Virus record (IMG/VR): IMGVR_UViG_3300033143_004977
Span: 1 to 59,757 of that record
From: a virus
Lineage: Duplodnaviria; Caudoviricetes
Strand: one strand, 5' to 3'
DNA: 59,757 bases
Both the position numbers and the translations under genes were made by a program. The notes beneath the pieces are model-generated. The model was given only the letters and a program-made list of their open reading frames with translations, did no database searches and had not been told where the DNA came from. The first letter of the stretch is position 1; each line of letters starts with the position of its first letter. Of this stretch, positions 4,918-29,604 are shown one piece after another.

Positions 4918-5222
4918 AAATAATAAAAGATAAATATTTACAAAAGAGAGGAGGGTCTGCTAAAATACTTAATATTTATTGTCAGAAATGTTTTAATAAA
5001 CTTTTTACATATCAAAAAGACGGTGTTGGACAATTGAAAAGATGTTATATTAATAGAATAACAGACAATATTAAGTTAATAGATAATGCATTATATTGTC
5101 CAAAATGTAAAGAAAGAATAGGATTTGGTATTATTCATACAGATAAAAGACAAACAATTAAACTAATACGAGGTACAATTATAAAAAAGAAATATGAATA
5201 CAGTAATAATCGTCGAAGGTAA
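4914..5222 (+). CDS. Zn-ribbon protein
   Basis: CQKC ... YQKDG ... CPKC. Confidence 0.6.
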   Translation: MKIIKDKYLQKRGGSAKILNIYCQKCFNKLFTYQKDGVGQLKRCYINRITDNIKLIDNALYCPKCKERIGFGIIHTDKRQTIKLIRGTIIKKKYEYSNNRRR

Positions 5223-5817
5223 AGCATGCTCGGGCAAGGAAACTATTGCTAAAAAATTTGCTAACGAAACAGGATATACTTACATAAATGCTGGTTTAAT
5301 TTTTAGAGGAACAATATATGCTGCTACTATTTCAAAGAGTGCTAGTTTGAATCAAGTACAATATATCTGGAAGAATGGAACATCATTCTTTTTACTTAAT
5401 GAAAAAGATATAACAAAAGAACTTTCTGCCTTATTTATTGGAGAATCAACAGCAGAAGTAGCAAGCACTAAAAAAGGTTTCTTGATGTTAACTAAGAATG
5501 TTAAGTTAATCTCAGAGAATTATGATAACATAATAGTAGATGGTATTGGTATGAGATCTATTTTTCCAGAAACTCAACATCGATTCTACTTACATGCTCC
5601 CATAGAAATTAGAGCAAAAAGAAGATTGAAAGATTTATTAAAACAAAATATTAAAACGACATATGAATTAGTCTATAAAGATCTCAAATATAGAGATAAG
5701 TGTGACACGGAAAGAAAATTCTGTCCTTTAGAAATATTAACAAGTCCAAACGTAATTGATACTTCAAAAACAACAATACAAGAATCTGTAAATATTATTA
5801 AACAAATAACAATATGA
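5194..5817 (+). CDS. Cytidylate kinase-like nucleotide kinase
   Basis: P-loop GKACSGKE, YINAGLIFR, YLHAPIEIRAKRR, RDKCD, IDTS. Confidence 0.8.
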   Translation: MNTVIIVEGKACSGKETIAKKFANETGYTYINAGLIFRGTIYAATISKSASLNQVQYIWKNGTSFFLLNEKDITKELSALFIGESTAEVASTKKGFLMLTKNVKLISENYDNIIVDGIGMRSIFPETQHRFYLHAPIEIRAKRRLKDLLKQNIKTTYELVYKDLKYRDKCDTERKFCPLEILTSPNVIDTSKTTIQESVNIIKQITI

Positions 5818-14917: not shown

Positions 14918-14920
14918 TAT

Positions 14921-15700: not shown

Positions 15701-15736
15701 AGGTCGACATTAATTAATCAACTAATAACAACCAAC

Positions 15737-15928
15737 ATGACTAAAAAGAAAACTACTTCTAAAAAAAGTACTCAAGTGGTATCTTCTGTTAAAGATCTAT
15801 TCAATGGTAATCATGTGACAGCTTGGCAAGATGATGACACAGTATATCTCAGCATCCATTGGACAACTGTAGCATTTCCTAAAGAAGATTGGAAAGAAAT
15901 CAAAAAAGAATTAAAGAAAGTCAAATAA
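15737..15928 (+). CDS. Hypothetical protein
   Basis: ORF track. Confidence 0.55.
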   Translation: MTKKKTTSKKSTQVVSSVKDLFNGNHVTAWQDDDTVYLSIHWTTVAFPKEDWKEIKKELKKVK

Positions 15929-15977
15929 TTCAAAAAGATCGACAATTAATAATTAAAAAAAAGAAAGGAACAAACAT

Positions 15978-16523
15978 ATGTCAGAACGAATTAAAATTGT
16001 AAAAATTGCAGTCAAACAAAATCCTAGTAAATACAAACCAGGTGAAACATATGCAGTAGTAACAGTAATGGATGATAAGAATAGAAAACTATCAGCAATG
16101 GGTAGATGGGCAGAAAATTGGAAAGTTGGTGACGTCATTGAAGCAAACGTAGAAGAAAGAAAATGGACAGATCGAGACGGATTTGAACAAACAGGATTAT
16201 CATTAAAGAATCCAACACCATCGACATTTGGTAATAAAGGATTTACTAAAAACACTCTAATCGATGCATATCATATTGCTGCAGAATTAGCATCTGTAAT
16301 TTATGCTAGTAAGAAAAAAATCACAATGAAAGACATTGATGAATTAGCAACGTACATCAAAAGTAAATTAGATACAGGTACATCAACACCTGCCCCAACA
16401 CCTGCCCCAACACCTGCAGTACCAACAGTCGATGTTAATACTCCTGCACCTGCCCCAACACCTGTTGCATCAGAAGATGATGGTATAGAAATTGAAGACG
16501 CTGATGATGACAAACCATTCTAA
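15978..16523 (+). CDS. ssb: Single-stranded DNA-binding protein
   Basis: OB-like N-terminus, Pro/Ala/Thr linker, acidic tail EDADDDKPF. Confidence 0.7.
   Translation: MSERIKIVKIAVKQNPSKYKPGETYAVVTVMDDKNRKLSAMGRWAENWKVGDVIEANVEERKWTDRDGFEQTGLSLKNPTPSTFGNKGFTKNTLIDAYHIAAELASVIYASKKKITMKDIDELATYIKSKLDTGTSTPAPTPAPTPAVPTVDVNTPAPAPTPVASEDDGIEIEDADDDKPF
16385..16465 (+). repeat. 12-bp coding repeats (ACACCTGCCCCA; TPAP)
   Basis: Repeats visible in the SSB linker. Confidence 0.8.
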
Positions 16524-16540
16524 TCATTAACATTCATAAC

Positions 16541-16747
16541 ATGGATAAATTAAAAACGTGGTGCGAATCTATTCGATCGTCAGTAGATTCTATTACTGAA
16601 AAGATCAAAGAAGTTGAAGAAAAACACAAGATTAGTCACAAATCATATCAAACGATTCGTGTTGCTTCTAAAGAAATACGAGATGTTTCGCAAATGATTA
16701 GAAAAGAAATCTTAAAGAAATTCAAAGAGCAAAAAGAAAAGAAATAA
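16541..16747 (+). CDS. Small basic helical protein, possibly histone-H1-like (Hc1 family)
   Basis: TIRVASKEIRDVSQMIRKEI resembles the family pattern. Confidence 0.35.
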   Translation: MDKLKTWCESIRSSVDSITEKIKEVEEKHKISHKSYQTIRVASKEIRDVSQMIRKEILKKFKEQKEKK

Positions 16748-16755
16748 TAATGACA

Positions 16756-16792
16756 GCCCTCCTTAAGAGAAGTATAAACTCTTAGGGAGGGC
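16756..16792. terminator. GC-rich hairpin (terminator or processing site)
   Basis: GCCCTCCTTAAGAG/CTCTTAGGGAGGGC stem; no clear U-tract. Confidence 0.45.
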
Positions 16793-16810
16793 CACTAACA
16801 GATAAATATC

Positions 16811-17224
16811 ATGAATATATTATGTGCACAATTTTCTCAACATCGAGGACCCGACGCCACAAGCCAACACAAAATTAGTTTTACTGTTGATGAATCTCAA
16901 CAAAAAGCAATGTATGATTTTGTTAGTCATGCTAAAAAAGGCACCGAAGTAATGTTATTGATATATGTAACAGAACACGATAATGACGCAATAAATGAAT
17001 TAGTGACAGAATCTGATATTGATACAAAAAAAAGATTATCACGCCAGATGCATGCGATTATTAACACTATAGCTGCAAATAAAAACATGACACCAAGTGA
17101 AATAAAAACGATTCTTAAAGAACATTTGATTATGAAACAACTAATGAAAGAATCTTCAAAAGAATTAGATATTAAAGGTATTGCATATGCTATATATTAT
17201 TTGCAAAATAATTTTAATGCATGA
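16811..17224 (+). CDS. Hypothetical protein
   Basis: ORF track. Confidence 0.6.
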   Translation: MNILCAQFSQHRGPDATSQHKISFTVDESQQKAMYDFVSHAKKGTEVMLLIYVTEHDNDAINELVTESDIDTKKRLSRQMHAIINTIAANKNMTPSEIKTILKEHLIMKQLMKESSKELDIKGIAYAIYYLQNNFNA

Positions 17225-17562
17225 GTTTTATTACAGGTGATACAATACATTTAACTATTGCCGAACCTTTTTATAAAGCAAGAAATTTTGTAAATTGGGA
17301 TATTGAAAAATATGGTGATAGTGAAATAGGCACTTCTATTGATATTGATTTGATTACTAATATTAAAAAAATAATATTAACGATTAATTCTGATAATACA
17401 ATATTGCAAACAACTAAAGAAAAAATAAAAGAATACGTGTATGACACTCCAAACTCGTTAACTACTAAATTCAATAAAGAAGTAATAATAGTACCATTAT
17501 CAATTTTCAAAAAAGTCGATAATACAATTGAAATTGATATTAATGAAATAAATATAAAATGA
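17221..17562 (+). CDS. Hypothetical protein
   Basis: ORF track; ATGA overlaps. Confidence 0.6.
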   Translation: MSFITGDTIHLTIAEPFYKARNFVNWDIEKYGDSEIGTSIDIDLITNIKKIILTINSDNTILQTTKEKIKEYVYDTPNSLTTKFNKEVIIVPLSIFKKVDNTIEIDINEINIK

Positions 17563-18449
17563 AAAAAACAGAAATTATTTTAGGAGGAGGCATAGCTGGA
17601 TTATTGTGGCATTATTTTAATCCCAAAAGTGTTATTATTACAGACAGAATAGGGGGACAGTTTTTAACAAAATTTCAACTTGGGCCAAAATATATACATA
17701 TCGATAAATATACTACAAGATTTTTCAAAGAAATTGATCTTAAACCAAATATTAAAAAAATAAAAATAGGTTTCTTTTATGATGGTAAATTGCATTCTAA
17801 AAATACTGAAAAAAATCGTAAAAAATATTTTGAAAAGACAAGAGGAAACATAAAAGAAATATATTATTCTGCAATGTCTGCAGATAAAACAGAATTTGAT
17901 TCTTATGATATATCTATAAACAAAATCATTGAAAAAATAAAAATAGAAGATAGAGTACTTCTGGAAAAAGTAAATAATATAAATCTTGAAAATAAAAAAA
18001 TAATAACTAATTCTACTGAAATAACATTCGATAAATTAGTTTCTACTATACCTTTGAATACTTTTTTATATTTGGCAGACAGATCTAATATCACTAATCA
18101 ATTTAAATCTTATCCAACTACATTTGTTTTAAGTTCCAATTATAAAAATTGCCCTTTCAATGATTTCAAAGATTTTGATTATGTATATTTTTCAGAAGAA
18201 AAATATCCATTTCATCGTATAACGAAAACTGAAAAGGGTTTAGTATTTGAATTTAAAGGAGATGTCATATATCCTATTATCAATGAAAAAGATAGAATAA
18301 TAATGAAAGTCGGGCAATTAATTCAAAATGATCTAAATATTAATTTTGAAAATGTTAATTTTTTTGGAAGATATGGTTGCTGGAAACATAAAATTAAAAT
18401 AAATGATTTATTAAAAGAACTTTATGAAAACACTAAAAAAAATATTTAA
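17559..18449 (+). CDS. FAD-dependent oxidoreductase, UDP-galactopyranose mutase-like
   Basis: IILGGGIAGL, IGG, GPKYIH, LVSTIPL, FFGRYGCWK. Confidence 0.7.
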   Translation: MKKTEIILGGGIAGLLWHYFNPKSVIITDRIGGQFLTKFQLGPKYIHIDKYTTRFFKEIDLKPNIKKIKIGFFYDGKLHSKNTEKNRKKYFEKTRGNIKEIYYSAMSADKTEFDSYDISINKIIEKIKIEDRVLLEKVNNINLENKKIITNSTEITFDKLVSTIPLNTFLYLADRSNITNQFKSYPTTFVLSSNYKNCPFNDFKDFDYVYFSEEKYPFHRITKTEKGLVFEFKGDVIYPIINEKDRIIMKVGQLIQNDLNINFENVNFFGRYGCWKHKIKINDLLKELYENTKKNI

Positions 18450-19395
18450 AGAACAAAAAGAATTTCAAAGATTCTTTTACGATCCAGACAATATAAATGA
18501 AAAAGACAAAATAAAATTTACAAAAGAATATATTTTGTCAATACATAGAGAATTAAGTGAAGTGCTTGATACTATATCCTGGAAAATACATAGAAAAGAA
18601 GATAAAATAATTTCTGAGACTAATACGAAAGAAGAAATAATAGATTGTTTTAAATTTTTATTGAATTTATGCATTATTTGGAAAATAGATGAAGAAGAAT
18701 TTGCAAAAGAATTTTTCAGAAAATCCGCTGTAGTTAGACAACGATATAATCAAGAAATATTGAACTCTATTAAAAAGGATGATTTAATATGTGCAATAGA
18801 TTTAGATGACACTCTTTCAAATTCTTCAGAATATTTTACAAAAATTTATAATGAAAAATACAATACTATTTTTAAAAATAGAAAAGAAATAAAAGAAAAA
18901 GTACCAATATTAGAATATGAAAAATTTAAACACTATTTTAGAGAATCTGGTGAAAAAATAAATATACCAATCAAAGAGAATGCAAAAGAATTATGTGTCT
19001 TTCTTAAAAAACTTGGATATAAAATAATAATTATTTCATCCAGACCATATAAAACATATTCAAGAATTTATTCTGATACATTAGAATGGCTTAATAATAA
19101 TAATGTTCAATATGATTCATTGTATTTTGAAGAAAATAAACATCTTAAAATATTAAAGTTTTTACCTAATATGTCATTTATTATTGAAGATGATTTAAAA
19201 TATGCAATACAAATATCAGAACAAAAATATAAAGTATATTTACTGTCTTCTCTCAAAACAAACATGGAAAACATAGACACAAAATATATACATAAAATAA
19301 ACAGTTTAAATGAAATGATTAATATTTTAAAAAATGAAGAATCTTCAGGAAAAATTAAAAGAAAAACTGAACAGTTGCAACAGTTGCCCATTTGA
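18424..19395 (+). CDS. Dimeric dUTPase/MazG-like domain fused to a HAD 5'-nucleotidase-like domain
   Basis: ELSEVLD..WKIH..EEIIDCFKF; IDLDDTL, ISSR, IIEDD. Confidence 0.8.
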   Translation: MKTLKKIFKEQKEFQRFFYDPDNINEKDKIKFTKEYILSIHRELSEVLDTISWKIHRKEDKIISETNTKEEIIDCFKFLLNLCIIWKIDEEEFAKEFFRKSAVVRQRYNQEILNSIKKDDLICAIDLDDTLSNSSEYFTKIYNEKYNTIFKNRKEIKEKVPILEYEKFKHYFRESGEKINIPIKENAKELCVFLKKLGYKIIIISSRPYKTYSRIYSDTLEWLNNNNVQYDSLYFEENKHLKILKFLPNMSFIIEDDLKYAIQISEQKYKVYLLSSLKTNMENIDTKYIHKINSLNEMINILKNEESSGKIKRKTEQLQQLPI

Positions 19396-19885
19396 AGATT
19401 ATGAAATAAACTGGGAAGATGAAAAAACAGGAACTGGTAAATTATGTGCATATATTTATCCAGAAAGCGATTGTTCAGTAATGGTAATTGGGCAAAATCC
19501 TTCTCATAGAAGATATAGGGGAACTCATGCAATGAATGGTAAACAAGGTGATATATTTAGAGAAATATTTGGTAAAAGTCGTTTGGTTTTTACGAATCTT
19601 ATACAAATTTCAACGCCAGATAATAAAGTAGATCATTTAACAAACCAACAAATTGAGCATTGTATAAAACATTTACTTTATGAAATCAAAGAAATAAAAC
19701 CAAAATTGATAATAGTATGCAGTTATTTTGCAAAAAGAAAACTCAACGAGCTTAATTATAGATTAGATATAACTGGTTCTATAGTTAAATTCATTAAACA
19801 CCCTGATTATTATTTATCATATCAAAAAGGAAACATTAACGAATATTATAAAGAAATAATAAATATTAAAAAAGAATGTCTATGA
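19334..19885 (+). CDS. Uracil-DNA glycosylase superfamily protein (family 4/5-like)
   Basis: CNSC, VMVIGQNPS, FTNL, IKPKLII, KHPDY. Confidence 0.75.
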   Translation: MKNLQEKLKEKLNSCNSCPFEDYEINWEDEKTGTGKLCAYIYPESDCSVMVIGQNPSHRRYRGTHAMNGKQGDIFREIFGKSRLVFTNLIQISTPDNKVDHLTNQQIEHCIKHLLYEIKEIKPKLIIVCSYFAKRKLNELNYRLDITGSIVKFIKHPDYYLSYQKGNINEYYKEIINIKKECL

Positions 19886-20331
19886 AAAGAAATTTTTATC
19901 TTATTTTTGAAGGAATAGATAGAGTTGGAAAAACGACTACTAGAAAATTAGTCGAAAAAGAAAGAAATGTAAAAGACACTGGTATTGATAGATTTATTGG
20001 TTCGAGCATAGTATATGGTAAGATATACAAAAGATACTCTAAAAAAGAATTTGAAAAACTGTACAATGATGAATATCTTTTTTCGACGACATTTGATACT
20101 ATTTTAATTTTTCTTTATTCTTCTGTAGACATAACTATTAAACGAATTGAAGAAAGCGGACATGAAAAAATAGATAAAAAACTTCTTACTGAAACATTAA
20201 AAGAATTTAATAATTATTATGAAAAATCTAGTTTTAAAAATAAAATTAAAATCGACACTGGTAAATATTCACAAAAAGAAGTAGTTGAGAAAATTTTAAA
20301 TTATTTAAAAAAAATAGAAAAAAATATATGA
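19876..20331 (+). CDS. Thymidylate/dNMP kinase-like protein
   Basis: IFEGIDRVGKTT, DRF..S..VYG, IDT. Confidence 0.8.
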   Translation: MSMKRNFYLIFEGIDRVGKTTTRKLVEKERNVKDTGIDRFIGSSIVYGKIYKRYSKKEFEKLYNDEYLFSTTFDTILIFLYSSVDITIKRIEESGHEKIDKKLLTETLKEFNNYYEKSSFKNKIKIDTGKYSQKEVVEKILNYLKKIEKNI

Positions 20332-21170
20332 AAATACTTATAACAGGTTCTAAAGGTGCAATAGGCTCATATTTGACACCTTATTTGAAAAAGAAATATG
20401 AAGTCATAGAAATTATTTCGGACATATCTAATTATTCTGATTTGAAAAGCAAAATAGAAAAACACAAAGAAGCTGATTGGATTATTAATTTAGCAGCTTT
20501 AGTAAATACTATAACATGTGATATTGCTGGCAGATATGCGTTTGATGTAAACGTCAAAGGAGCATATAATGTTGCGATAATATCTAAAGAATTTAAAATA
20601 AAACATTGTTTTTTTTCGACTACTGCTATTTATAAACCGAATATTTTAATTAAAGAAGAATCAGAAAAAAATCCACAGACTCTATATGGTTTTACAAAAT
20701 ATCTTGGTGAAAAAACAGTCGAATTTGTTTATAAAGACCAAAAAGAAAATCTATTGATTATAAGACCTTGTTTTATTTTCGGTGGTAAAAACGATCATTC
20801 AATTGGTTCCTTGATTGTTAAGTCTGCAATTAAACAAATACCTTTAGTTATTTTATTAGATCCAGAAAACAAAAAAGATTATATGCATATCACTAATTTT
20901 TCTGAAGCGATTTATAAATTAATAGAAAAAGACGCTAGTGGAGATTATAATATCAGTTATGGCAAACCAATTAAATTTAAAGAATTAGTCGATAAAGTCA
21001 AAAAAATGAATTTAAATCCAATAATATATTATAGACCAGAAGAAGACTATATGAAAAATCACATAGTTGATAATTCTAAATTGAAAAATATAATAAATTG
21101 GAACCCAACTATTACTTTAGATGATGGATTAAAAGAAGTTTTTAAAAATATAACAAAAAAACATGAATGA
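20328..21170 (+). CDS. NAD-dependent nucleotide-sugar epimerase/dehydratase (extended SDR)
   Basis: ITGSKGAIG, INLAA, STTAIY, YGFTK, YNI. Confidence 0.9.
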   Translation: MKILITGSKGAIGSYLTPYLKKKYEVIEIISDISNYSDLKSKIEKHKEADWIINLAALVNTITCDIAGRYAFDVNVKGAYNVAIISKEFKIKHCFFSTTAIYKPNILIKEESEKNPQTLYGFTKYLGEKTVEFVYKDQKENLLIIRPCFIFGGKNDHSIGSLIVKSAIKQIPLVILLDPENKKDYMHITNFSEAIYKLIEKDASGDYNISYGKPIKFKELVDKVKKMNLNPIIYYRPEEDYMKNHIVDNSKLKNIINWNPTITLDDGLKEVFKNITKKHE

Positions 21171-22203
21171 TGATGAAAAAAATGAATTTCGAAAATTATT
21201 ACACACTCTTCCTGAACAAGTACCAAAATTAGACATGAATGAAATTAATTCTTTTATAGAAAATGAAGAAAAATGGAAAAAAAATGAGTTTGGTATAAAA
21301 ATAGGGCCTTTTCAATTTTATGAAGGAGTCAAAGGATTGACAGTCGAAATGATTGATTTTCCAAAAAATCCATATATGCTTCTTTATGAATTCGCTGTCG
21401 CGACTTGGGGAAATGAAGAATATCCAAGTATGTGGAGTAAAACGAAACCAGAACATCGATTCGTTGTAGTTAAAAATGTTTTAGAAGGGAAAGCACTTCC
21501 TCTTGGTAAAGAAGCATTACAATTTAGTTTTATTATTAGAAAAGCAAGTCGTGCTTCATTTGACCAACATGCAAGACAGAGAATAGGTGCTACATTTGCA
21601 AGCCAGGGTGTTAGAGATAATTCAAGACTTCTTGCAGGATTTAGAGTACCAAACGAAATTTGGAAAAATGAAGAAAAATTAAAAAAAGTAATAAAAATGA
21701 ATTTGTTGCTTAAAAAAATATATTATGAATTAATCAGTTCTGAAAAAAATAATAATTCGTTTCAAGCAGCAAGATGTATGATGACAATGAATTGGACACA
21801 TAATTATAAATACACTGTAAATTATATGGCATTAGGAAGTTATATGGCCCAACGTTTAGTAGCATCTGAACAAGAAGACACTGTAGCAACAGCGATAGGC
21901 ATATGGAATCAAATAAATAAAAAATTTCCTCTTCTTGCTAATTTTTTAAGGCCAAAATGTGATTGGGCTGGTAAATGCAAATGTCATCAAGGAGACGGTG
22001 GTGAATTATTCGGAGCATTATTTAAAGGTTGTGGTAGATTTCCAGAAACAGAAGGAAAATATGCTACTTTTAATTGGGCATGTACAGATTATAATACATT
22101 AGAAAAACAATCAATGATTCATTTACCAAATCCAGATGAATGGAAAACATATAATACTTTAAAAGATTTAACAGAAGAAGATCAAAAATTATTTGAAGAA
22201 TAA
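21163..22203 (+). CDS. Divergent flavin-dependent thymidylate synthase (ThyX)-like protein
   Basis: FSFII..ASRASFDQHARQR..FASQGVRD; QAARCMM; QRL; LRPKC. Confidence 0.7.
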   Translation: MNDDEKNEFRKLLHTLPEQVPKLDMNEINSFIENEEKWKKNEFGIKIGPFQFYEGVKGLTVEMIDFPKNPYMLLYEFAVATWGNEEYPSMWSKTKPEHRFVVVKNVLEGKALPLGKEALQFSFIIRKASRASFDQHARQRIGATFASQGVRDNSRLLAGFRVPNEIWKNEEKLKKVIKMNLLLKKIYYELISSEKNNNSFQAARCMMTMNWTHNYKYTVNYMALGSYMAQRLVASEQEDTVATAIGIWNQINKKFPLLANFLRPKCDWAGKCKCHQGDGGELFGALFKGCGRFPETEGKYATFNWACTDYNTLEKQSMIHLPNPDEWKTYNTLKDLTEEDQKLFEE

Positions 22204-24793
22204 TATGACAATAAAAAATATTAAACCAGTATGTGGTTGGGATGATCAAAAAAAGATATATTTGGTTCATCATAAAAACAATAAGAAAAAAATTTGTATA
22301 ATAGATAATTTTGAATGGTATTTTGTAATTAAAAAAGAAGATTTTGAAAAAGAAAAAATAAAAAATATTCTGTTAAAATCAGAATGTTTTTTGAGAAAAG
22401 TAAAAATTAAAAATAATTTTGCTAAAATACATTGTATGAAAAATGTACCATATTTACTTGGCAAATTATTCAAAGAATTAAAAAAAGAATCAGTAAAATT
22501 ATATGAAACAGACATATCTTTAATAAAAAGATATATGATTGATAATAAAATAGAAATAGAAGAAAATTTATCTATTCTTTTTTTTGATATAGAGACAGAT
22601 GATACAGACGATGGCATAACAATAGGAAAGAATAGAATTCTTTCATGGGCAGCATGTGATACAAATAAAAATATTTTTTATGATACTAGCAAAGATGAAA
22701 AAAAATTGATATTAAGTTTATTAAAAAAAATATCAGAATATGATATAATAGTTGGCTGGAATTCAAAGAATTTCGATATGCCTTATATAAAAAAAAGAGT
22801 AGAATACCATAATATATGTGGCAAAAAAAATAAAAAAATAGTTCCATTAGAAGAAACTAATTTCTGGAAAAAAATAATGCATGTAGATATGATGCAGAGA
22901 TTAATTAAACTTTTTGGGCCAATGATGACTATTATCAATTTGCCAGGATTTAGTTTAAATGATGTTTCTTTTACTTTTTTAAATGAAAAAAAAGTAGAAC
23001 ATGAAGAAAAAATAATAGAAATGTATAATAATAATCCAGAGAAACTTAAAAAATATAATATACAAGATGTTGTTCTTTTATATAAATTGAATGAAAAATT
23101 AAGAACATTGCCTCTAATGATTAAAGAATGCAGTTGGACAGGAACATTCATAGATAGATTTTTTATTGGTGAACTTTTAGATAATTATATTTTAAGAGAA
23201 GCTAATGAAAAAAAACTTCATTTGTTTTCACGACCTGATTTCGAACAACAAGAAAAAACAAAAAAATTAAGAGTAAGAGGAGGTTATGTTATGGAACCTG
23301 TTACTGGAATGTATGATTATATTAGAGTAATGGATTATAAAAGCCTTTACCCGTCTATAATAGTTAGTTGGAACATTGGACAAGAATCATTAATTGAAAA
23401 TGAAATATCTGTTAAAGCAAAAGAAAATTTTGATAAATGGCTTGGAGATAGAAAAATCGAAGAAGTAAATTATAAAGAATGGCATGATTTTCTTAAAAAA
23501 GAAAATCTAAAGTATAACCAGAAAAATGAATATTATCAAACTGCTAATAATCAGTATTTTAAAAAAGAACCAATAAGCGTAGTAAGTGATCTTGTCAACA
23601 ATCTTCTTAATGAAAGAAAGTCTTATAAAAAACAACAACTTGAATCGAAGTACAATTCATTAGAATATAAAAATGCACAAGCTTCACAAGAAACAGTGAA
23701 AGAGATGGCAAATAGCATTTATGGAATTTGCGCTGATAAAAAATCAAGATATTTTGATCCTAGAATTGCAGAAGCTATAACATTAACAGGACAGTTCATG
23801 AATAGAACAGCGGTTGATATTATTGAAAAGATGAAATATAAAGTAATATATTGTGACACGGATTCTGTTTTCACCAGAATAAAGAATGATACTGAAATGA
23901 AAAAAGTAACAGAAAAAGTAAATAAAAATCTTTCAGTATTTCTAATGAAAAAATATAATTTTAAAAAATATATCATTAATTTAGAATACGAAAAGAAATT
24001 CAAAAAATTTATTATGATTGACAAGAAAAGATATTCTGGTTATTTGACTGAAGCTGATGGAAAACCAGTAGATTCTATTTTGTCTAAAGGAATTGAAAAT
24101 GTCAGAAAGAATACAATTATTTTTACTAAAAATAAAATGAATGAACTATTAAATCTTATTTTAAAGAAGAATAAAAAATCAAAATATTTAAAAGAATGGA
24201 TTCTCAGTTTAAAAAAGTATGTTTTAAATAATAAAATAAAACCAGAAAATTTGTCTATAACAATGAAACTTTCTAAACCCACTACTAGTTATAAATCAAA
24301 ACCACCTCATGTAAGATTGGCTGAAAAACTTATAAAAGAAAAGAAAATATTAGAAACACAAGAAGGAAAACATAATTGGGGGCAAAAAATAGAATATATT
24401 ATTACAGATAGCAAAAATAAAATGGAATCTGTATTAACAAGCGAATACAATGGTAAATGGGATCGAAATTATTATTGGGACGTTCAAATATATGCTCCAT
24501 TAATGAGAATTTTAAAAGCATGTTTTCCAAAACAAGATTGGGAAAAGTATAGTATAACTTTATATGAAAGAAAATTATTAAAAAAAGAAAAAGAAGAAGC
24601 AAAAATAAAAAGAGAAAAAGAGAGAGAAATCAAAAGAAAAATAAGAGAAAAAAATAAAAAAGAAAGAGAAAAAAATAAAAAAAGAAAAGAATTAGAAAGA
24701 ACTAAAAAATTAAAATTAAAAGAAAAAATCAAAAAACAAAAAGAAAAATTAAAAGAAAAAAAAGAAGCGAAACAGAAAAGTGAAATTTATTAA
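22193..24793 (+). CDS. polB: Family B DNA polymerase
   Basis: Exonuclease FDIETD, NSKNFD, YNIQD; polymerase DYKSLYPS, KEMANSIYG, YCDTDS, KKRY. Confidence 0.95.
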   Translation: MKNNMTIKNIKPVCGWDDQKKIYLVHHKNNKKKICIIDNFEWYFVIKKEDFEKEKIKNILLKSECFLRKVKIKNNFAKIHCMKNVPYLLGKLFKELKKESVKLYETDISLIKRYMIDNKIEIEENLSILFFDIETDDTDDGITIGKNRILSWAACDTNKNIFYDTSKDEKKLILSLLKKISEYDIIVGWNSKNFDMPYIKKRVEYHNICGKKNKKIVPLEETNFWKKIMHVDMMQRLIKLFGPMMTIINLPGFSLNDVSFTFLNEKKVEHEEKIIEMYNNNPEKLKKYNIQDVVLLYKLNEKLRTLPLMIKECSWTGTFIDRFFIGELLDNYILREANEKKLHLFSRPDFEQQEKTKKLRVRGGYVMEPVTGMYDYIRVMDYKSLYPSIIVSWNIGQESLIENEISVKAKENFDKWLGDRKIEEVNYKEWHDFLKKENLKYNQKNEYYQTANNQYFKKEPISVVSDLVNNLLNERKSYKKQQLESKYNSLEYKNAQASQETVKEMANSIYGICADKKSRYFDPRIAEAITLTGQFMNRTAVDIIEKMKYKVIYCDTDSVFTRIKNDTEMKKVTEKVNKNLSVFLMKKYNFKKYIINLEYEKKFKKFIMIDKKRYSGYLTEADGKPVDSILSKGIENVRKNTIIFTKNKMNELLNLILKKNKKSKYLKEWILSLKKYVLNNKIKPENLSITMKLSKPTTSYKSKPPHVRLAEKLIKEKKILETQEGKHNWGQKIEYIITDSKNKMESVLTSEYNGKWDRNYYWDVQIYAPLMRILKACFPKQDWEKYSITLYERKLLKKEKEEAKIKREKEREIKRKIREKNKKEREKNKKRKELERTKKLKLKEKIKKQKEKLKEKKEAKQKSEIY

Positions 24794-25664
24794 TTATAAA
24801 AATATGCCAAAAATCAATCTTAGTAAAATAATCCCCGATCCAGATCAACCTAGAAAAGTATTTTCTAAAACAGAATTGTTTGAATTGCAAAATTCAATAC
24901 AAGCACAAGGTATTCTTTCACCAATCATCGTCGAAAGTAATTATCAAAAAGATAAGTATTTATTAATAGATGGTGAAAGACGCTATCGATGTGCAAAAAA
25001 ATTAGAATTAGAAACGGTACCTGTAGAAATTATTGAAGGACCATTAACATATAAAGAACGAACAGAAAAAAGATTTCATGTGCAAGAACAACATAGTAAC
25101 TGGTCAGAATTAGATAAAGCAAGGGCAATATATGATTATAAGAAAACATCAAAGAAAACTCTTGCTGAAATAGCTGAAACTCTTAACCTTCAGGTGCCCA
25201 AGGTGCATGGTTATCTAAGTGTTACTGAGTTTACGGAAGCTGGCAAGAAACTTATTAATGAACATAATATTGACTTTACGTATCTTATATTCCTAATTCG
25301 CGCTGTTAAACATTATTTAGTAATATCTGACCTAAAGCAAGAGTACATAGAGGAAAAGCTTATTCTTAAAATAGTATCAGGCACTTTCGCGAAAGTTAGT
25401 GATATTCAATCATTCTCCAAAGCAATGAGTTGTAATAATTATGAAAAATTAAAAATAAATTTTCTAGAAAGATTAGATTTTTCCTTCGAAGATTTTATCA
25501 ATCGAACAAATGTTAATAAAAAAGAGGAAACACAAGTATTTGATAGAATTCTTATAAAATTAGATTTAGAAATTTCTAAAAATATAGAAAAAAAGAATTT
25601 TCTAACAAAGAATCATCTAGAAATGCTAGAAAAGATTAGAAATTCTATAAATAGAATATTATGA
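24780..25664 (+). CDS. ParB/Srx-domain protein
   Basis: PDPDQPRK, GILSPIIV, LIDGERRYR, followed by an HTH. Confidence 0.85.
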   Translation: MKFINYKNMPKINLSKIIPDPDQPRKVFSKTELFELQNSIQAQGILSPIIVESNYQKDKYLLIDGERRYRCAKKLELETVPVEIIEGPLTYKERTEKRFHVQEQHSNWSELDKARAIYDYKKTSKKTLAEIAETLNLQVPKVHGYLSVTEFTEAGKKLINEHNIDFTYLIFLIRAVKHYLVISDLKQEYIEEKLILKIVSGTFAKVSDIQSFSKAMSCNNYEKLKINFLERLDFSFEDFINRTNVNKKEETQVFDRILIKLDLEISKNIEKKNFLTKNHLEMLEKIRNSINRIL

Positions 25665-26431
25665 AACACGTTGTTCTTTCACCTCACTTTGATGATGCTG
25701 TTATCTCATTGGGTGGTTATTTAGATATTCTTGGAAAAAAAGCAACAGTCATTACGTTTTTTACTAGTAGTCCAATAAAACCAATAGTTATAAAATGGGA
25801 TAACAAATGTGGTTTTATAAATAGTAAAGATACTGTAAAACAGAGAAAAATAGAAAATCTAAAAGCTTTAAAAATATTAAATAACAATATAATCGATTAT
25901 GAATATATTCAACATTCATATAGAAAAAAAAGAATGTCTAAAATAGAAGAAAAAGAATTGATTAACGAAATCGAAAAAGATATTAATAAAATATTAAATA
26001 CCAACAAAGAAATATCATTATATAGTCCAGCATATCTTGGTTCTAGAACACATAAAGATCATAAAATATTGCATCATGCTTTTATAAAAACAAATAAGAA
26101 TAATAAAAATCAAAAACATAAATTTTATATTTATGAAGATTATCTATATTGTGATAATTTTAGAATCAGACATGAAATTATGAAAAATTCGACTTTGTTA
26201 CGGTATTTTTCATCTTTGTACTCTTCATTAACAATTATTGAAAAAACAATAAAATTGAAAAATATTAATCTTGAAAATAAGCTTGAAGCAATATTAAAAT
26301 ATAAATCACAAGTATTTGGATTTGATAATTATTCTGATTCACCAATGTTTTCATTGACTAAAGTCATAGATTATAATAGAAAAAGATACAAAGACATTAA
26401 TTCATGTGAAATAATATATCAAATAATATGA
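25661..26431 (+). CDS. PIG-L family de-N-acetylase
   Basis: SPHFDDA, HKDH, YED, YKSQ. Confidence 0.85.
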   Translation: MKHVVLSPHFDDAVISLGGYLDILGKKATVITFFTSSPIKPIVIKWDNKCGFINSKDTVKQRKIENLKALKILNNNIIDYEYIQHSYRKKRMSKIEEKELINEIEKDINKILNTNKEISLYSPAYLGSRTHKDHKILHHAFIKTNKNNKNQKHKFYIYEDYLYCDNFRIRHEIMKNSTLLRYFSSLYSSLTIIEKTIKLKNINLENKLEAILKYKSQVFGFDNYSDSPMFSLTKVIDYNRKRYKDINSCEIIYQII

Positions 26432-27264
26432 AAATATGCATAGCAAGTAAAAATCGTGCAGAAACAATGACTACACAACTTTTTTTTAATCCAAAAGATA
26501 TATTAATTTTTGTTGAACCTCAAGAAATTAAAAAATATCAGATTTTTAATTCTGGTTATAAATTAGTAAACATAAAAAAGAATAATAAAGGTATAGCATA
26601 TGCAAGAAATTTTATATTAAATTATATGTCTGATAAATGTATATTAATGGCAGACGATGACTATCAATGGTTTGGTAAAAGAAATAAAGAAGGTAGATAT
26701 GATACATTAAAAAATTGCCAAGAAATGGTCAATAATATAGAAAAAAATTTAAAAAATTGTGAAATATGTGGAATTTCAGATAATTCTTTTAGTTATTTTG
26801 TAAATAAAAATAACAATAATAAAAGAATATATTTTAATGATTCCGTAGTAAGAGGTATATATGGTATTAATATACAATGGCTAAAAAAGAAAAATATAAA
26901 GTATGATGAAAAATTAAAATGTGAAACTGAAGACATAGATATTAATATAATGATTATTATCAATAAAGGTAAAACATGTATTGATTATAAATATAGTCGC
27001 AAAGATTCATATAGATATGCAGGAGGATTGACAAAAGAAAGAGGAGGTATATTAACTTTAGATATATTACAAAGAAATATTATAAATAATTTAGCTAAAA
27101 AATATGGTACTGAATTTTTTTCAACTTCACATGATCAATATGGTAATTTAAAAACAAGAACTCTTAAATTTAAATTGATTATTAAGAGATCAGATATTGT
27201 TAAAAAATATGTTGATAAATATAATAAAGAAAATGAACAACGACTTCAGTCAAAAAACTCGTGA
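26428..27264 (+). CDS. GT-A fold glycosyltransferase (phage DNA-glycosylating TAGT/GREB1-like type)
   Basis: IASKNRA, FVEPQE..Y, GIAYARN, MADDD, TEDID, GGL. Confidence 0.75.
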   Translation: MKICIASKNRAETMTTQLFFNPKDILIFVEPQEIKKYQIFNSGYKLVNIKKNNKGIAYARNFILNYMSDKCILMADDDYQWFGKRNKEGRYDTLKNCQEMVNNIEKNLKNCEICGISDNSFSYFVNKNNNNKRIYFNDSVVRGIYGINIQWLKKKNIKYDEKLKCETEDIDINIMIIINKGKTCIDYKYSRKDSYRYAGGLTKERGGILTLDILQRNIINNLAKKYGTEFFSTSHDQYGNLKTRTLKFKLIIKRSDIVKKYVDKYNKENEQRLQSKNS

Positions 27265-27385
27265 TCTTTTCTTCTGGAATACGACTTGCTGGTTTTGCAG
27301 AAAAAATCACGCTGATTGTCTTCATCATATTTTAGGCAGAACTTCAAATTCTCCTCTAAATGCAGCGCCTATGTACAATTTTTAA
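27233..27385 (+). pseudogene. Truncated 5' copy of the gene at 28135
   Basis: About 46 codons homologous to 28135 onward, including 33 identical nt; cut off at a promoter. Confidence 0.75.
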
Positions 27386-27400
27386 AATATATATTATATT
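27372..27400 (+). promoter_or_regulatory. Phage promoter (variant) at the start of an HNH insert
   Basis: GCCTA-TGTACA-17 nt-TATATT. Confidence 0.5.
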
Positions 27401-27407
27401 ATAAATA

Positions 27408-28145
27408 ATGAATAAGTATTGCATAATATGTTCTAAAAAACATAACAATAAAAAATTCTGTTCTGTTCAATGTTATTATCAATATTTGAATTTGCTTAAA
27501 ACAAAGAAAAAAAGAAGTAAAACATTTATTGATTTACATAAAATAAAACAATTTGGATTTCAACAAAAAAATAAGTATAGATTTCAGAAAAATAGAATTC
27601 CATGGAACAAAGGATTGACAAAAGAAACTGATGAAAGAGTTAGAAAAAGTGCTGAAAAGTTAAGTAAAACTAATACTGGTCATAAAGCATCATTAAAAAC
27701 AAGAAAAAAGATGAGTAAACAACGTAAAGGAAAGCCTACTTGGCTTTCTAATTTATCAACTAAAGAATATCAATATATGATAAATACACATTATGGCGGA
27801 AAACCACCCGCTCGAAAATATGATGGTAAAACAGATGCTTTATCAATCAAACGAAGATTTTTTGAGAAAATAGAAAAAAAAGGATATCTTGGTTTTGATG
27901 AATATCCTTGTGAATGTTGTGGCAGAACAAGTGGTACTATTTTTGACTTACATCATATTATTTTTCGATCAGAAAGACCATATCATAAAAAATTACATCA
28001 TATAGATAATATTTTGTATGTATGTAGATACTGTCATGATAAATTTCATAGAGATCCATTTTTCAGAAATGACATTGTGCGAAAAAGAAAATTAGATAAA
28101 ATATTCAATTTGAAAATAGTTGAAAAAACATCATATGAAAAATAA
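27408..28145 (+). CDS. HNH homing endonuclease with NUMOD3-like repeats
   Basis: PWNKG, RKKMS, CECC..DLHHI..N..CRYCH. Confidence 0.85.
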   Translation: MNKYCIICSKKHNNKKFCSVQCYYQYLNLLKTKKKRSKTFIDLHKIKQFGFQQKNKYRFQKNRIPWNKGLTKETDERVRKSAEKLSKTNTGHKASLKTRKKMSKQRKGKPTWLSNLSTKEYQYMINTHYGGKPPARKYDGKTDALSIKRRFFEKIEKKGYLGFDEYPCECCGRTSGTIFDLHHIIFRSERPYHKKLHHIDNILYVCRYCHDKFHRDPFFRNDIVRKRKLDKIFNLKIVEKTSYEK

Positions 28146-28440
28146 TTTTACAGAAAAAACAAAAGATTTGTTTTTTTGGAATACGCAATGCTGGTTTTGC
28201 AGAAAAAATCACGCTGATTGTTTGCATTATATTTTAAAAGATATATCAACTTCTCCTTTAAATATTGCACCATTAAATAATGATGAGTGTTGCATCAAGA
28301 ATGGAAAACTTGCTTCTGTAAAAGTGCAAGGTCAATTATTACGAAAAACATTAAAATATTTATTGAAGAATAATTATGAACTTACACACGAAGATAAATT
28401 ATTTATGTTGCAAAATAAACGTATTTATAAATATCATTGA
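28135..28440 (+). CDS. HNH-like Zn-binding protein with apparently degenerate active site
   Basis: CWFC..HADCLHYIL..PLN..ECC. Confidence 0.6.
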   Translation: MKNNFTEKTKDLFFWNTQCWFCRKNHADCLHYILKDISTSPLNIAPLNNDECCIKNGKLASVKVQGQLLRKTLKYLLKNNYELTHEDKLFMLQNKRIYKYH

Positions 28441-28448
28441 TTTGCCTA

Positions 28449-28477
28449 TTTACAAATAGTTAAAAGTATGGTATAAT
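28449..28477 (+). promoter_or_regulatory. Phage consensus promoter
   Basis: TTTACA-17 nt-TATAAT with TG. Confidence 0.8.
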
Positions 28478-28512
28478 ATGGATATGGTTAAATAATAATT
28501 AATAATAAAAAT

Positions 28513-28752
28513 ATGACATTTATTGAAAGAATGACACGAATCAAAAACATCTTAAAAACACCTTATCATTTCTTTACAGTCACATCAGACAAAGAAGTGT
28601 TATTACGATTAGAAGATAGTAAAGAATGTAAATATTCTTTTAAGGGATATATAATGATTGAAGCAATCAAAGAAGCAGAAGCATACATCAAACAAGAAAT
28701 CAACGCTGGTAGTTTAAAAGAAATAAACGACAATAATGAAAAGAAAAATTAA
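28513..28752 (+). CDS. Hypothetical protein
   Basis: First ORF after the promoter. Confidence 0.6.
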   Translation: MTFIERMTRIKNILKTPYHFFTVTSDKEVLLRLEDSKECKYSFKGYIMIEAIKEAEAYIKQEINAGSLKEINDNNEKKN

Positions 28753-29164
28753 ATTTAGAGCGTGGGCTATTGGTAATAAGAAAATGTTATATGACATATG
28801 TGTTATGTTTTGTCCAACAGAATTAAGAGAATACAGAATATACACAAGTAGTGATTGGTATAAAGGCAAAGAATATGGAGAATTTTTAGGAAATGATAAA
28901 CATTTTGAAATACAACAATACACTGGACTAAAAGACAAAAACGGAAAAGAGATATACGAAGGAGATGTTGTTAAAGGATACATACCAGATTCAGAATCAG
29001 ATTTGTATTTTGAAGCAAATGTAATAAAATTTGATGAAAGCAGTTATTCTATTCATAATAATATAGGGTACATTGGAGATTTACATCATTGTTCAATAAA
29101 TAATAGTATTGAAATCATAGGCAACATCTATGAAAATCCTAATGTATTAAAACGATGCAAATAA
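28736..29164 (+). CDS. YopX family protein
   Basis: IKFRAW, QYTGLKDKNGKEIYEGDVV, EIIGNIYENP. Confidence 0.95.
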   Translation: MKRKIKFRAWAIGNKKMLYDICVMFCPTELREYRIYTSSDWYKGKEYGEFLGNDKHFEIQQYTGLKDKNGKEIYEGDVVKGYIPDSESDLYFEANVIKFDESSYSIHNNIGYIGDLHHCSINNSIEIIGNIYENPNVLKRCK

Positions 29165-29340
29165 ATAATGAAAAAGAAATACGAGAATCTGGTGCAGTAT
29201 TTTGGGTAAGAACACCCGTTGCATTAATAATGAAAAATACAATAACACCAGAAGAATATTATAATGTGGAAAGCATAGAGTATGGTAATTCTTCGATAGG
29301 TAAAATAATTGAAGAAATCAAATACAAATAAATTAGAAAC

Positions 29341-29583
29341 ATGACAAAGATAAACAAAATTATATGCGATATTTGCCAGAAAGAAATTGATGTTAGTTTA
29401 GGAATGGGAATGTTTGAAAGAATTGAAATTAATCGAGAAAAGAATTTCTTAGCAAAATTACCTGGCAAATTTAATGAAAAAGATATCCGCAAGGAATCTC
29501 TTGATATGTGCAACAATTGTTCTGAATTACTTGCAGAATATGTGAAAAAGTTGAAAACAGAAGTATCAATTAAAAAGAACTAA
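29341..29583 (+). CDS. Zn-finger hypothetical protein
   Basis: CDIC ... DMCNNC. Confidence 0.65.
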   Translation: MTKINKIICDICQKEIDVSLGMGMFERIEINREKNFLAKLPGKFNEKDIRKESLDMCNNCSELLAEYVKKLKTEVSIKKN

Positions 29584-29604
29584 GATTCTCTTAGGTCTTT
29601 AACT

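Follow-up and report, generated by a model that had tools for sequence, protein, structure and literature searches.

Two separately inherited gene modules around a phage family B DNA polymerase may make a glycosylated and de-N-acetylated DNA base

The 59,757-bp stretch of viral DNA analysed here (the window) is the whole of the IMG/VR virus record IMGVR_UViG_3300033143_004977, from a member of the Caudoviricetes, with ~27% G+C, and it contains a run of ten overlapping genes (17559-27264) around a family B DNA polymerase (PolB). We read this block as two independently inherited modules on either side of PolB: a pre-replicative pathway that would make a C5-modified dUMP (Module A, 17559-22203), and a cassette (Module B, 24780-27264) in which a ParB-like protein would assist a glycosyltransferase (GT) of the TAGT family in placing an N-acetylhexosamine on DNA, which a PIG-L-type enzyme would then de-N-acetylate. 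We put the probability of this reading at about 0.4. Module A is a conserved unit that recurs by PolA or PolB in other viral contigs, and the ParB and GT genes form a separate mobile cassette. An initial annotation had taken the ten genes for a single pathway that included the ParB-GT pair. This picture gives way to one of two modules, because Module A recurs without ParB, PIG-L or TAGT within 10 kb in 30 loci, and ParB-GT stands beside a portal gene in relatives. Comparison of neighbourhoods shows each module conserved on its own, but not the two together.

The ten open reading frames (ORFs) lie on the + strand at the coordinates and in the order first annotated, and neighbours overlap by 4 to 62 nt. 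Family matches (Pfam, PHROG, NCBIfam) are significant for nine of the ten genes and agree with the earlier labels; the first gene has no family match, and its label as a pyranose mutase holds at the level of the fold only. The tight packing reaches upstream to at least 16811, so that the operon-like run is longer than the ten-gene block. It takes in two small ORFs at 16811..17562 (+; 137 and 113 aa), which run into the block and have no Pfam, PHROG or NCBIfam match. The 137-aa protein matches the related loci L002 (2e-42) and L003 (9e-37) and is kept upstream of Module A in these two closest relatives. A simple scan of 13000-31000 found no terminator-like site on the + strand, and promoter-like sites were at chance level (136 versus 128 ± 14). 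The 9.7-kb block has no megablast match in the isolate-phage set, which comprises 50,697 records and was also used for the tblastn comparisons below (E <= 1e-3 for the GT and PIG-L).

The key enzyme of Module A is a divergent ThyX-fold flavoenzyme of 346 aa (21163..22203, +). It matches Pfam Thy1 (1.2e-10, 41.9 bits versus a cut-off of 24.8) and stays below the equivalog level (TIGR02170, 27 bits versus a cut-off of 87.9), and a profile built from 26 members of its family reaches solved ThyX structures in a PDB search only at E ~1e-5. The predicted model (pLDDT 88.3) adopts the ThyX fold, with TMt values of 0.62-0.76 and 14-20% identity in a Foldseek search of the PDB, where ThyX entries are matched at E 1.8e-8 to 2.6e-7. 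A large protein collection holds 113 homologs, from 100% down to ~36% identity, all from metagenomes or metagenome-assembled genomes and, if they bear a name at all, labelled only 'FAD-dependent thymidylate synthase' or 'hypothetical'; tblastn found no match among the isolate phages. In a HMMER alignment to the T. maritima and M. tuberculosis enzymes, the positions of Gln75, Arg78, Arg80, Ser88, Arg90, Arg147 and Arg174 are kept. We take these Gln, Arg and Ser residues to bind dUMP and FAD, and Arg174 is presumably the residue that activates uracil. The signature itself is changed: RHR has become RQR, the Tyr after the second Arg is replaced by Asp, and the family consensus SRaaFDQhARqR...SQGVRD departs from what we take to be the canonical RHRxxS... 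motif. The family also has invariant acidic residues (D134, E236, D239 and D267) and a Cys-rich C-terminal extension of ~90 aa, modelled with low confidence, in which four cysteines (C266, C272, C290 and C307; residues ~266-346, window 21958-22203) are nearly invariant. At the related locus L014, a gene for IscA-type Fe-S assembly (L014:9459-9854) lies between the dUTPase-HAD and ThyX-like genes. The extension and this neighbour hint at an Fe-S or zinc site foreign to canonical ThyX.

An alignment-based scan located the ThyX-like gene in 30 further viral loci, among which L016/L017, L021/L022 and L006/L013/L029 are near-duplicates. Co-occurrence was counted by phmmer with the window proteins within 10 kb of the ThyX-like gene, and all neighbours were clustered. 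By phmmer, the fused dUTPase-HAD gene is present at 28 of the 30 loci, the flavoprotein at 22, the Tmk-like kinase at 18, a short-chain dehydrogenase/reductase (SDR) at 16, a uracil-DNA glycosylase (UDG)-like protein at 11 and PolB at 7. Clustering places a Tmk-like cluster at 25 loci, often twice at the same locus; PolA and UDG-like ORFs fall together in a cluster found at 23, and a dCMP deaminase is present at 13. A second Rossmann flavoprotein-like family occurs at six loci, most of which lack a phmmer match to the first. The orders flavoprotein-dUTPase/HAD and dUTPase/HAD-ThyX-like recur, and the fusion usually adjoins the flavoprotein gene, the ThyX-like gene or both. Other members of the module vary. 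L003, whose ThyX-like protein is the most similar (73% identity), has a dCTP deaminase inside the module; L002, L018 and L030 have S-adenosylmethionine (SAM) methyltransferases there, with a cluster-19 homolog in L025; and L008 has an aldo-keto reductase (AKR) together with a radical-SAM/SPASM protein, and no SDR.

The fusion gene (18424..19395, +; Pfam and PHROG matches) joins an all-alpha dUTPase_2/MazG-type dNTP pyrophosphatase (1.6e-7; residues ~4-171) to a HAD phosphatase of the NT5C/PNK-phosphatase-like type (~110-272) in which DxDxT is present; among isolate phages, tblastn matched only the HAD half, in actinophage genes named 'phosphatase / pyrophosphohydrolase'. It is followed by the UDG-superfamily protein (19334..19885, +; Pfam UDG 3.8e-11), which is weakly family-4-like, with GQNPS as motif A and HPD as motif B, and which scores far below the cut-off of the NCBIfam type-4 UDG model. 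The Tmk-like dNMP kinase (19876..20331, +; 151 aa; Thymidylate_kin 8.4e-8, phrog_761 8e-18) carries a P-loop and a DRF motif. The SDR (20328..21170, +; NAD epimerase/dehydratase 1.5e-23), an optional member of the module, is of the extended type and resembles NDP-sugar epimerases, dehydratases and reductases; its TGxxGxxG and YxxxK motifs are intact, and its PDB relatives are UDP-Glc 4-epimerase, dTDP-Glc dehydratase and RmlD. PolB itself (22193..24793, +; DNA_pol_B 1.4e-56), which has a 3'-5' exonuclease domain, lies between the two modules.

The first gene (17559..18449, +) encodes a short FAD-type flavoprotein of 296 aa, for which no Pfam (including GLF), PHROG or meaningful NCBIfam match and no tblastn match in isolate phages was found. 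Its AlphaFold model (pLDDT 90.5) is closest in the PDB to UDP-galactopyranose mutases (UGMs; E 4.9e-13, TMq 0.62-0.69). The TMt is only 0.40-0.45, against eukaryotic UGM chains of 465-510 aa, and amine oxidases (MAO), PPOX and renalase follow closely; the Atlas structure rows likewise belong to clusters of amine oxidases, PPOX or GLF. The alignment shows a GxGxxG near the N-terminus as well as invariant Tyr and Arg residues. The protein thus has the FAD Rossmann fold of the UGM/amine-oxidase class and lacks the GLF profile and the full three-domain architecture, so that 'pyranose-mutase-like' describes its predicted fold only.

The initial annotation had derived a sugar donor from this protein: the flavoprotein and the SDR would make an epimerised, possibly furanose, NDP-N-acetyl sugar, the GT would transfer it to the ThyX-derived base, and PIG-L would deacetylate it. 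A GalE-type SDR and a UGM are the classic pair for UDP-galactofuranose, UGMs are the best fold match of the flavoprotein, and all the genes stand in one overlapping run. Epimerase-dependent DNA GTs also exist, according to the data presented in bioRxiv 10.1101/2023.12.21.572611. The distribution of the genes speaks otherwise. Flavoprotein and SDR accompany the ThyX-like gene at loci where the 10-kb neighbourhood has no TAGT, none of 24 other ParB-GT loci has a homolog of either by phmmer, and the 296-aa flavoprotein covers only part of a UGM. Four related records rated 100% complete (G005, G018, G023 and G033) show no TAGT, GT1 or GT2 match; G005, G018 and G033 have the flavoprotein, G023 has the second flavoprotein-like family, and G023 and G033 have the SDR. 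Since the module occurs in complete relatives without these GTs, the flavoprotein and SDR belong to the nucleotide module and not to the supply of a sugar donor, and the partnership of UGM with a galactofuranosyltransferase is not seen in complete relatives that carry the flavoprotein. We therefore rejected the pair as a donor supply for the GT, and we consider the full chain highly improbable.

A canonical ThyX coexists with the ThyX-like gene in four of the 30 related records (G005, G013, G018 and G037), with Thy1 E-values of 3.7e-29 to 3.6e-48 and, in three of the four, frames of ~240 aa; it is present in two of the four records rated 100% complete. As two thymidylate synthases of the same fold would be redundant in a 72-kb genome, a distinct product of the ThyX-like enzyme becomes more likely. 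The enzyme is probably not simply the thymidylate synthase, as the initial annotation had also held.

A plainer account would leave thymine unmodified by Module A. It would then serve ordinary thymidylate supply and uracil exclusion, the dUTPase yielding dUMP, a divergent but genuine ThyX converting it to dTMP, Tmk making dTDP, and the UDG removing uracil; all four activities are classic functions of the dTTP pathway. The ParB-PIG-L-GT cassette would act alone or with an enzyme encoded in the missing half of the record, which is rated only ~51% complete. Such an enzyme could be a divergent thymine dioxygenase that makes 5-hydroxymethyluracil (5hmU) after replication. Thymine dioxygenases that depend on ParB and have GTs nearby are known, and in the survey reported in PMC13229309 many of their contigs have no Pfam TET/JBP match. 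The ThyX-like enzyme keeps the arginines that align with the substrate- and cofactor-binding ones of ThyX, and in two records rated 100% complete (G023 and G033) its gene is the only thymidylate-synthase-type gene, with no ThyA. On the other side, four records carry a canonical ThyX as well, the family lies far below the equivalog cut-off with RQR in place of RHR and an added Cys-rich domain, and ordinary supply leaves unexplained the near-obligate flavoprotein, the HAD fusion and the variable SDR, AKR, radical-SAM and methyltransferase partners. The initial annotation saw no TET/JBP dioxygenase or ThyA-type hydroxymethylase, and this is borne out: TET/JBP (PF12851) has no match in the whole record even at E <= 10 and none in five ParB-GT records, no TET/JBP is among the Pfam matches of the relative G006, and no ThyA was found among the 101 window ORFs given to Pfam (sets of 10, 49 and 16 of 42). 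We regard ordinary supply as fairly unlikely.

The substrate of the ThyX-like enzyme is probably dUMP, judging from the deaminases, the dUTPase domain, the Tmk-like kinases, a separate cytidylate kinase in the window (5194..5817, +; Cytidylate_kin 7.8e-32) and the conserved residues. The cytidylate kinase argues for canonical handling of cytosine nucleotides. T4 has a different set (td, cd, gp42, gp56 and gp1), by which cytosine is replaced, and Module A could be imagined to work in this way, with the pyrophosphatase as a dCTPase, the ThyX-like enzyme hydroxymethylating or methylating dCMP, and the GT decorating 5-hydroxymethylcytosine (5hmC). Canonical ThyX and dCMP deaminase coexist in relatives in parallel to the T4 set, the invariant acidic residues noted above are compatible with such a change of substrate, and characterised TAGTs act on glucosyl-5hmC (PMC13216743, as far as described there). 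The kinases of the module are Tmk-like, however, the cytidylate kinase is separate, and the dCTP deaminase inside the L003 module fits a supply of dUMP. The residue aligned with Arg174, to which we assign uracil activation, is likewise invariant. We find replacement of cytosine very unlikely.

Short ORFs (frames of ~160-250 aa) whose match to the ThyA profile is confined to its central part (~105-227 of 266) adjoin the ThyX-like gene in five related records (G001:C1:20094-20384, G016, G018, G004 and G021; L002:8620-9147). Two of them contain an in-frame stop, and the window has no such ORF. Either they are remnants or they may encode a small protein that binds dUMP.

Module B begins with a ParB-like protein (24780..25664, +; ParB_N 7.6e-20, TIGR00180 1.3e-22) that has an N-terminal CTPase-type domain; the GERRxR box is conserved in the alignment, and homologs show HTH_ParB matches. 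It ends with a GT-A glycosyltransferase of the TAGT family (26428..27264, +; PF20691 5e-13, phrog_842 1.3e-19). The score of the GT against PF20691 is 49.9 bits (cut-off 27.5), whereas the GT2 profile is reached only at its cut-off; phrog_842 is named 'beta-glucosyl-HMC-alpha-glucosyltransferase'. A DxD motif (D76-D77-D78) is conserved, all 16 homologs in the protein collection match PF20691, and 28 of the 30 nearest clusters in the Atlas are TAGT, all viral. The earlier label of a TAGT-like GT thus becomes that of a genuine family member. When the GT alignment was used as a profile against the PDB, nothing meaningful was matched.

Scans of viral contigs with the single GT protein returned nothing, and ParB-GT loci were reached only with the GT alignment, which yielded nine viral and 16 metagenome loci, four of them duplicates. 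A ParB-family gene ends -29 to +32 nt from the GT start at 23 of the 25 loci (19 of 21 unique ones), and the two loci without an upstream ParB gene each have <100 bp of upstream DNA. At seven viral loci, ParB-GT lies directly before genes for a Mu-like portal, a prohead protease and a Mu gpT-type capsid protein on the same strand. A distant pair, with a GT that is 26% identical, occupies a different phage type, before Terminase_3, an HK97-type portal and the capsid gene. In G006, which is of the same lineage as the window (22 shared proteins) and whose replication module falls in its missing 30%, ParB-GT heads the late operon; in the window it has moved to the replication operon, directly behind PolB and far from structural genes. 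ParB_N and TAGT are both absent from G001, G002, G003 and G004, from which it follows that ParB and GT are gained and lost together; the view of ParB as a mere core packaging gene of the lineage was rejected on these four records. A complex prediction from both alignments scored 0.45 for ParB with GT, versus 0.06 for the best of three controls, with runs agreeing in at least 57% of contacts and a partner pLDDT of at least 79. Of 80 solved complexes, 58 attain the mark applied here, as do 2 of 110 mismatched pairs; scores of 0.60 or under account for only seven of the 80 solved complexes and for both passing mismatches. Adjacency, joint gain and loss, and the weakly supportive prediction suggest that ParB and GT are likely a functional pair in which ParB brings the GT to DNA or activates it there.

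Other sugar-handling genes also seem to attach to this cassette. At L055:7496-8771 (+), a HAD (Hydrolase_3) fragment and a GH57-like gene precede the ParB-GT pair, with no PIG-L inside. In the window, a gene for a PIG-L/LmbE-family de-N-acetylase (25661..26431, +; PF02585 1.4e-8, 35.8 bits versus a cut-off of 28.2) sits exactly between ParB and GT with a 4-nt overlap on each side, which fits the earlier proposal that PIG-L de-N-acetylates a transferred N-acetyl sugar. PIG-L is absent from all other ParB-GT loci, and its insertion is peculiar to this phage. Two motifs, HxDD and HxDH (SPHFDDA and HKDHK), whose residues we take to be zinc ligands, are common to this protein and its homologs. Among 693 hits the best non-self relative is 38% identical, and a hydrophobic N-terminal extension present in five of six inspected relatives (all but P0148) is not found in the window protein. 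The nearest solved relatives, weakly matched, are the glycopeptide pseudoaglycone deacetylases Dbv21 and Orf2* (E 0.0027 and 0.11), which take the acetyl group off a GlcNAc that a large aglycone already bears. In the same way, the cassette would first make an N-acetylhexosaminyl base and then a hexosaminyl base from it.

The TAGT-like GT and PIG-L might instead glycosylate and trim a virion protein or another glycan, with ParB as a packaging-related neighbour. The place of ParB-GT directly upstream of the portal at the seven viral loci, on the strand of the head genes, suits such a role, as do glycan-biosynthesis islands of 18-20 kb that adjoin the capsid gene in G001 and G006. The island of G001 (C1 ~72-88 kb, L069:12151 to L070:8409; ~18 kb) has five GT2 genes, a GT1-like gene, UDP-GlcNAc 2-epimerase, an SDR, LicD and many methyltransferases; that of G006 (C1 ~39-59 kb, L081 and L082:630-3068; ~20 kb) has a DegT aminotransferase, a GDP-mannose-dehydratase-like SDR, GNAT acetyltransferases, an APS-kinase-sulfotransferase, GT1 genes and a GT-D-like gene. 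Both islands lie between capsid and tail/fibre genes and differ considerably in gene content; they look like a hypervariable locus for virion glycosylation, and the missing half of the window's record may hold one too. 'GREB1-related' clusters occur among the Atlas neighbours of the GT, and GREB1 is reported to glycosylate protein. The extensions of the nearest PIG-L relatives are typical of cellular membrane-anchored enzymes, and no hydroxymethylase was found in the ParB-GT records. Against this role, PF20691 is well above its cut-off while GT2 only reaches its own, and the ParB and GT genes are translationally coupled and gained or lost together, even in an unrelated phage type. The cassette here follows PolB in a replication operon, the ParB-GT complex is predicted (if weakly) above its controls, and the family members characterised in PMC13216743 and PMC13390438, as presented there, act on DNA. 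TAGT membership, coupling to ParB in unrelated phages and the position behind PolB point to DNA as the target of the GT, and we judge action on virion glycans to be unlikely.

Gene identities, folds, motif conservation, co-occurrence and adjacency statistics were observed here; from them we infer every chemical step, the identity of the base, the action of the GT on DNA and the use of the Module A product as the acceptor of Module B. In the two-module reading, Module A would funnel dUTP, and in relatives dCTP or dCMP through the deaminases, to dUMP. The ThyX-fold flavoenzyme would install a one-carbon unit at C5. The UGM-like flavoprotein, the second flavin enzyme of the module, with a variable reductase, methyltransferase or radical-SAM partner, would convert the product to a 5-substituted dUMP other than thymidylate, the flavoprotein and the alternating SDR or AKR acting on a nucleotide intermediate. 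The Tmk-like kinase would phosphorylate the 5-substituted dUMP, the pyrophosphatase-phosphatase fusion would drain the competing canonical nucleotide, and the phage polymerase would incorporate the analogue. After replication, a ParB-type DNA clamp or activator and the TAGT-family GT would put N-acetylhexosamine on a DNA base, and PIG-L would strip the acetyl group to leave a cationic amino sugar. It is possible that the product of the ThyX-like enzyme is the acceptor of the GT, given their co-location in this phage, perhaps in one more contig, and distantly in G032. The candidate contig is suggested by P0003 (ThyX-like, 75% identity) and P0124 (GT, 44% identity), both of which list a longest contig of 41,392 bp and may share it.

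Several observations weigh against this reading. The link between the modules is weak: ParB, PIG-L and TAGT were found by phmmer within 10 kb at none of the 30 other ThyX-like loci, and a search of the corresponding records found TAGT above the cut-off in none of five and then in one of 28. This lone TAGT, in G032, is distant, lies ~17 kb from the ThyX-like gene and has no adjacent ParB. The ParB-GT records examined, all incomplete (11-84%), in turn contain no ThyX-like, ThyA or Tet_JBP gene. With its dUMP- and FAD-binding arginines in place, the ThyX-like enzyme could still make dTMP, a point to which its sole occurrence in G023 and G033 adds, and the canonical ThyX of other relatives speaks against a complete loss of thymine from their DNA. 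The missing half of the record may encode a dioxygenase or hydroxymethylase. As for Module B, neither the GT nor PIG-L has a tblastn match in the isolate-phage records, and a viral-contig scan with PIG-L found nothing; the TAGT assignment rests on profile and embedding similarity, and the complex prediction lends the ParB-GT pair weak support. The late-operon position beside the portal and the capsid-adjoining islands in the lineage, as set out above, would also suit a GT that serves the virion.

The block lies within a larger + strand region of replication, nucleotide-metabolism and RNA-repair genes (2370-43042; Pfam and other family matches), which is flanked on both sides by - strand genes. 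Besides PolB and the cytidylate kinase, it encodes a split SNF2 helicase, GTP cyclohydrolase II, a DnaB-primase, a PD-(D/E)XK nuclease, RecA with an intein, RusA, RtcB and two phosphoribosyltransferases. The large terminase gene (408-1886, -) lies on one side, and an amidase gene, tail genes, a Mu gp36-like gene and a gene for a Laminin_G protein on the other (43847 to the window end, -). Portal, protease and capsid genes are missing from the window and must therefore lie in the unsequenced half, which falls between the terminase gene and the tail genes that end at 59757.

The SNF2 helicase gene is apparently split into ORFs at 2370-3032 and 6786-7814 (+), which match profile positions 2-123 and 128-286 plus Helicase_C, respectively. 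The insert of ~3.7 kb (3033-6785) holds GTP cyclohydrolase II, the cytidylate kinase, an RlaP-type nucleotidyltransferase and small ORFs; in the relative G001, the gene is intact and single (552 aa). The intein of RecA (33894-35735, +; 613 aa) has an HNH_3 domain, and a ThiF-like protein (31862-32992, +; 376 aa) contains an HNH-endonuclease-like insert at residues ~76-214. A JAB-domain gene (31279-31842) precedes the ThiF-like gene, and this pair is kept in G006. Two adjacent ORFs inside the replication block (13062-13610 and 13619-14119, +) resemble the halves of a TnpB/Cas12f-type gene (phrog 'transposase' 2.6e-4; Cas12f1-like_TNB 1.5e-18) and possibly represent a decayed or split IS200/605-type element. 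An ORF of 97 aa (43412-43705, -), with homologs in G006 and G008, matches only the C-terminal end of NrdD (profile 511-562, E 2.6e-9), which we take to be the region of the glycyl-radical site; it may be a stand-alone 'spare part' glycyl-radical protein. The sites 38025-39215 (+) and 42096-43042 (+) are assigned to the RtcB RNA ligase, a KhpA-like KH-domain protein and two tandem type-I phosphoribosyltransferases. Relatives also carry Ro60/TROVE, Fic, Thg1 and RNA ligases, together an RNA-repair and anti-defence-like set. The window further encodes tRNA-Pro(TGG) (37944-38016, +) and tRNA-Met(CAT) (45593-45670, -).

The module of ThyX-like enzyme, flavoprotein and dUTPase-HAD fusion is the more general finding and is undescribed as far as our literature searches show: they returned no paper describing the ThyX-like family, and ThyX-type enzymes in phage hypermodification only in general mentions. 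The ParB-PIG-L-TAGT cassette adds a further form to the ParB-associated systems of DNA hypermodification that were described recently. The most far-reaching proposal, which we hold to be rather doubtful, is a novel flavin route: the ThyX-like enzyme, whose Cys-rich extension possibly carries Fe-S, would work with the UGM-like flavoprotein to produce a 5-substituted deoxyuridylate, and this would stand in for some or all of the thymine in a widespread group of uncultured phages. The exocyclic-methylene step of ThyX might be diverted or run backwards in this route, with water or another nucleophile captured instead of hydride. In this phage alone, a ParB-guided TAGT would then add N-acetylhexosamine and PIG-L would deacetylate it, which would give the DNA a cationic amino-sugar base of a kind not yet described. 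The known routes of pyrimidine modification, as outlined in PMC8989533, PMC13229309 and bioRxiv 10.1101/2023.12.21.572611, start with a ThyA-fold synthase before replication or with TET/JBP after it; a ThyX-fold enzyme with a product other than dTMP would, if real, be a third entry point. The pairing of ParB with TAGT would extend ParB activation of DNA-modifying enzymes from dioxygenases to glycosyltransferases and would offer a function for 'solitary' TAGTs. The deacetylase predicts an amino-sugar DNA base, which would matter for the evasion of restriction and CRISPR, for the packaging of DNA and for enzymatic tools to label it.

Phages with 5hmU in their DNA, e.g. SPO1, encode a dNTP pyrophosphatase, a nucleotidase, a dedicated kinase, a deaminase and a C5 synthase. 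The window has domains for the synthase, the dUTP/dTTPase, the nucleotidase and the kinase of this set, and the deaminase appears only in relatives (dCMP deaminase at the 13 loci, dCTP deaminase in L003). Module A resembles the pre-replicative replacement of thymidine in phages of the SPO1, SP8 and phi-e type and the 5-hydroxymethyldeoxyuridine-based pathways of thymidine hypermodification (PMC8989533) in combining a putative C5 synthase on dUMP, a dUTP/dTTP pyrophosphatase, a nucleotidase, a dNMP kinase and a phage polymerase, and its relatives share with them a dCMP deaminase and variable tailoring enzymes (methyltransferase, radical SAM, flavoprotein). In contrast to the ThyA fold that PMC8989533 gives for their synthase, the synthase here has the ThyX (flavin) fold; the flavoprotein is UGM-like and nearly obligatory, pyrophosphatase and phosphatase are fused, and the Pfam matches of the window ORFs include neither a 5-HMUDK kinase nor a member of the aGPT-Pplase family. 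The ThyX-like enzyme has the fold of ThyX (PF02511; PDB 1O26 and 3GWC) and of the polyoxin UMP/dUMP methylase PolB (PDB 4P5B), with conserved Gln, Arg and Ser residues, but differs in RQR, in the Asp that replaces the Tyr of SQRY, in its N-terminal and Cys-rich C-terminal extensions and in its low identity to ThyX.

The GT shares with TAGT (PF20691; the T2/T6 enzyme and TET-associated DNA GTs) its Pfam and PHROG membership, the GT-A fold, the DxD motif and a viral-only neighbourhood. The T2/T6 enzyme adds a second glucose to glucosyl-5hmC (PMC13216743, PMC13390438), and the window GT would count among the 'solitary' TAGT homologs, which occur in 288 of 753 phage genomes and have no function assigned in the account of PMC13216743. 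It differs from the known systems in that no alpha-GT, beta-GT, C5-methyltransferase or TET/JBP was found near it and in its pairing with ParB and, here, PIG-L. Phage GTs encoded next to methyltransferases and TET enzymes attach hexose, N-acetylhexosamine or heptose to 5hmC; they often need a partner epimerase and have ParB-like genes among their neighbours, as reported in bioRxiv 10.1101/2023.12.21.572611, and a search of that preprint's main text for 'deacetylase' found no occurrence.

The 5mYOX systems described in PMC13229309 also pair a ParB homolog with an enzyme that modifies DNA, in many cases close to the terminase or portal genes. Some phage thymine dioxygenases, which form a subclass there, require a ParB homolog for activity on double-stranded DNA, and the commonest neighbours of these dioxygenases are GTs (31%), ParBs (27%) and terminases (19%). 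No 5mYOX is detectable with PF12851 in the window (E <= 10) or in the five ParB-GT records, and ParB is paired directly with the GT; the ParB-GT-portal arrangement fits the landscape of ParB-dependent dioxygenases. The window PIG-L differs from the PIG-L/LmbE enzymes that act after glycosyl transfer (MshB, BshB and teicoplanin Orf2*/Dbv21) in its place within a phage ParB-GT cassette and in its modest identity, 38% at best, to any relative, and it resembles them in its PIG-L Pfam membership and in the HxDD and HxDH motifs.

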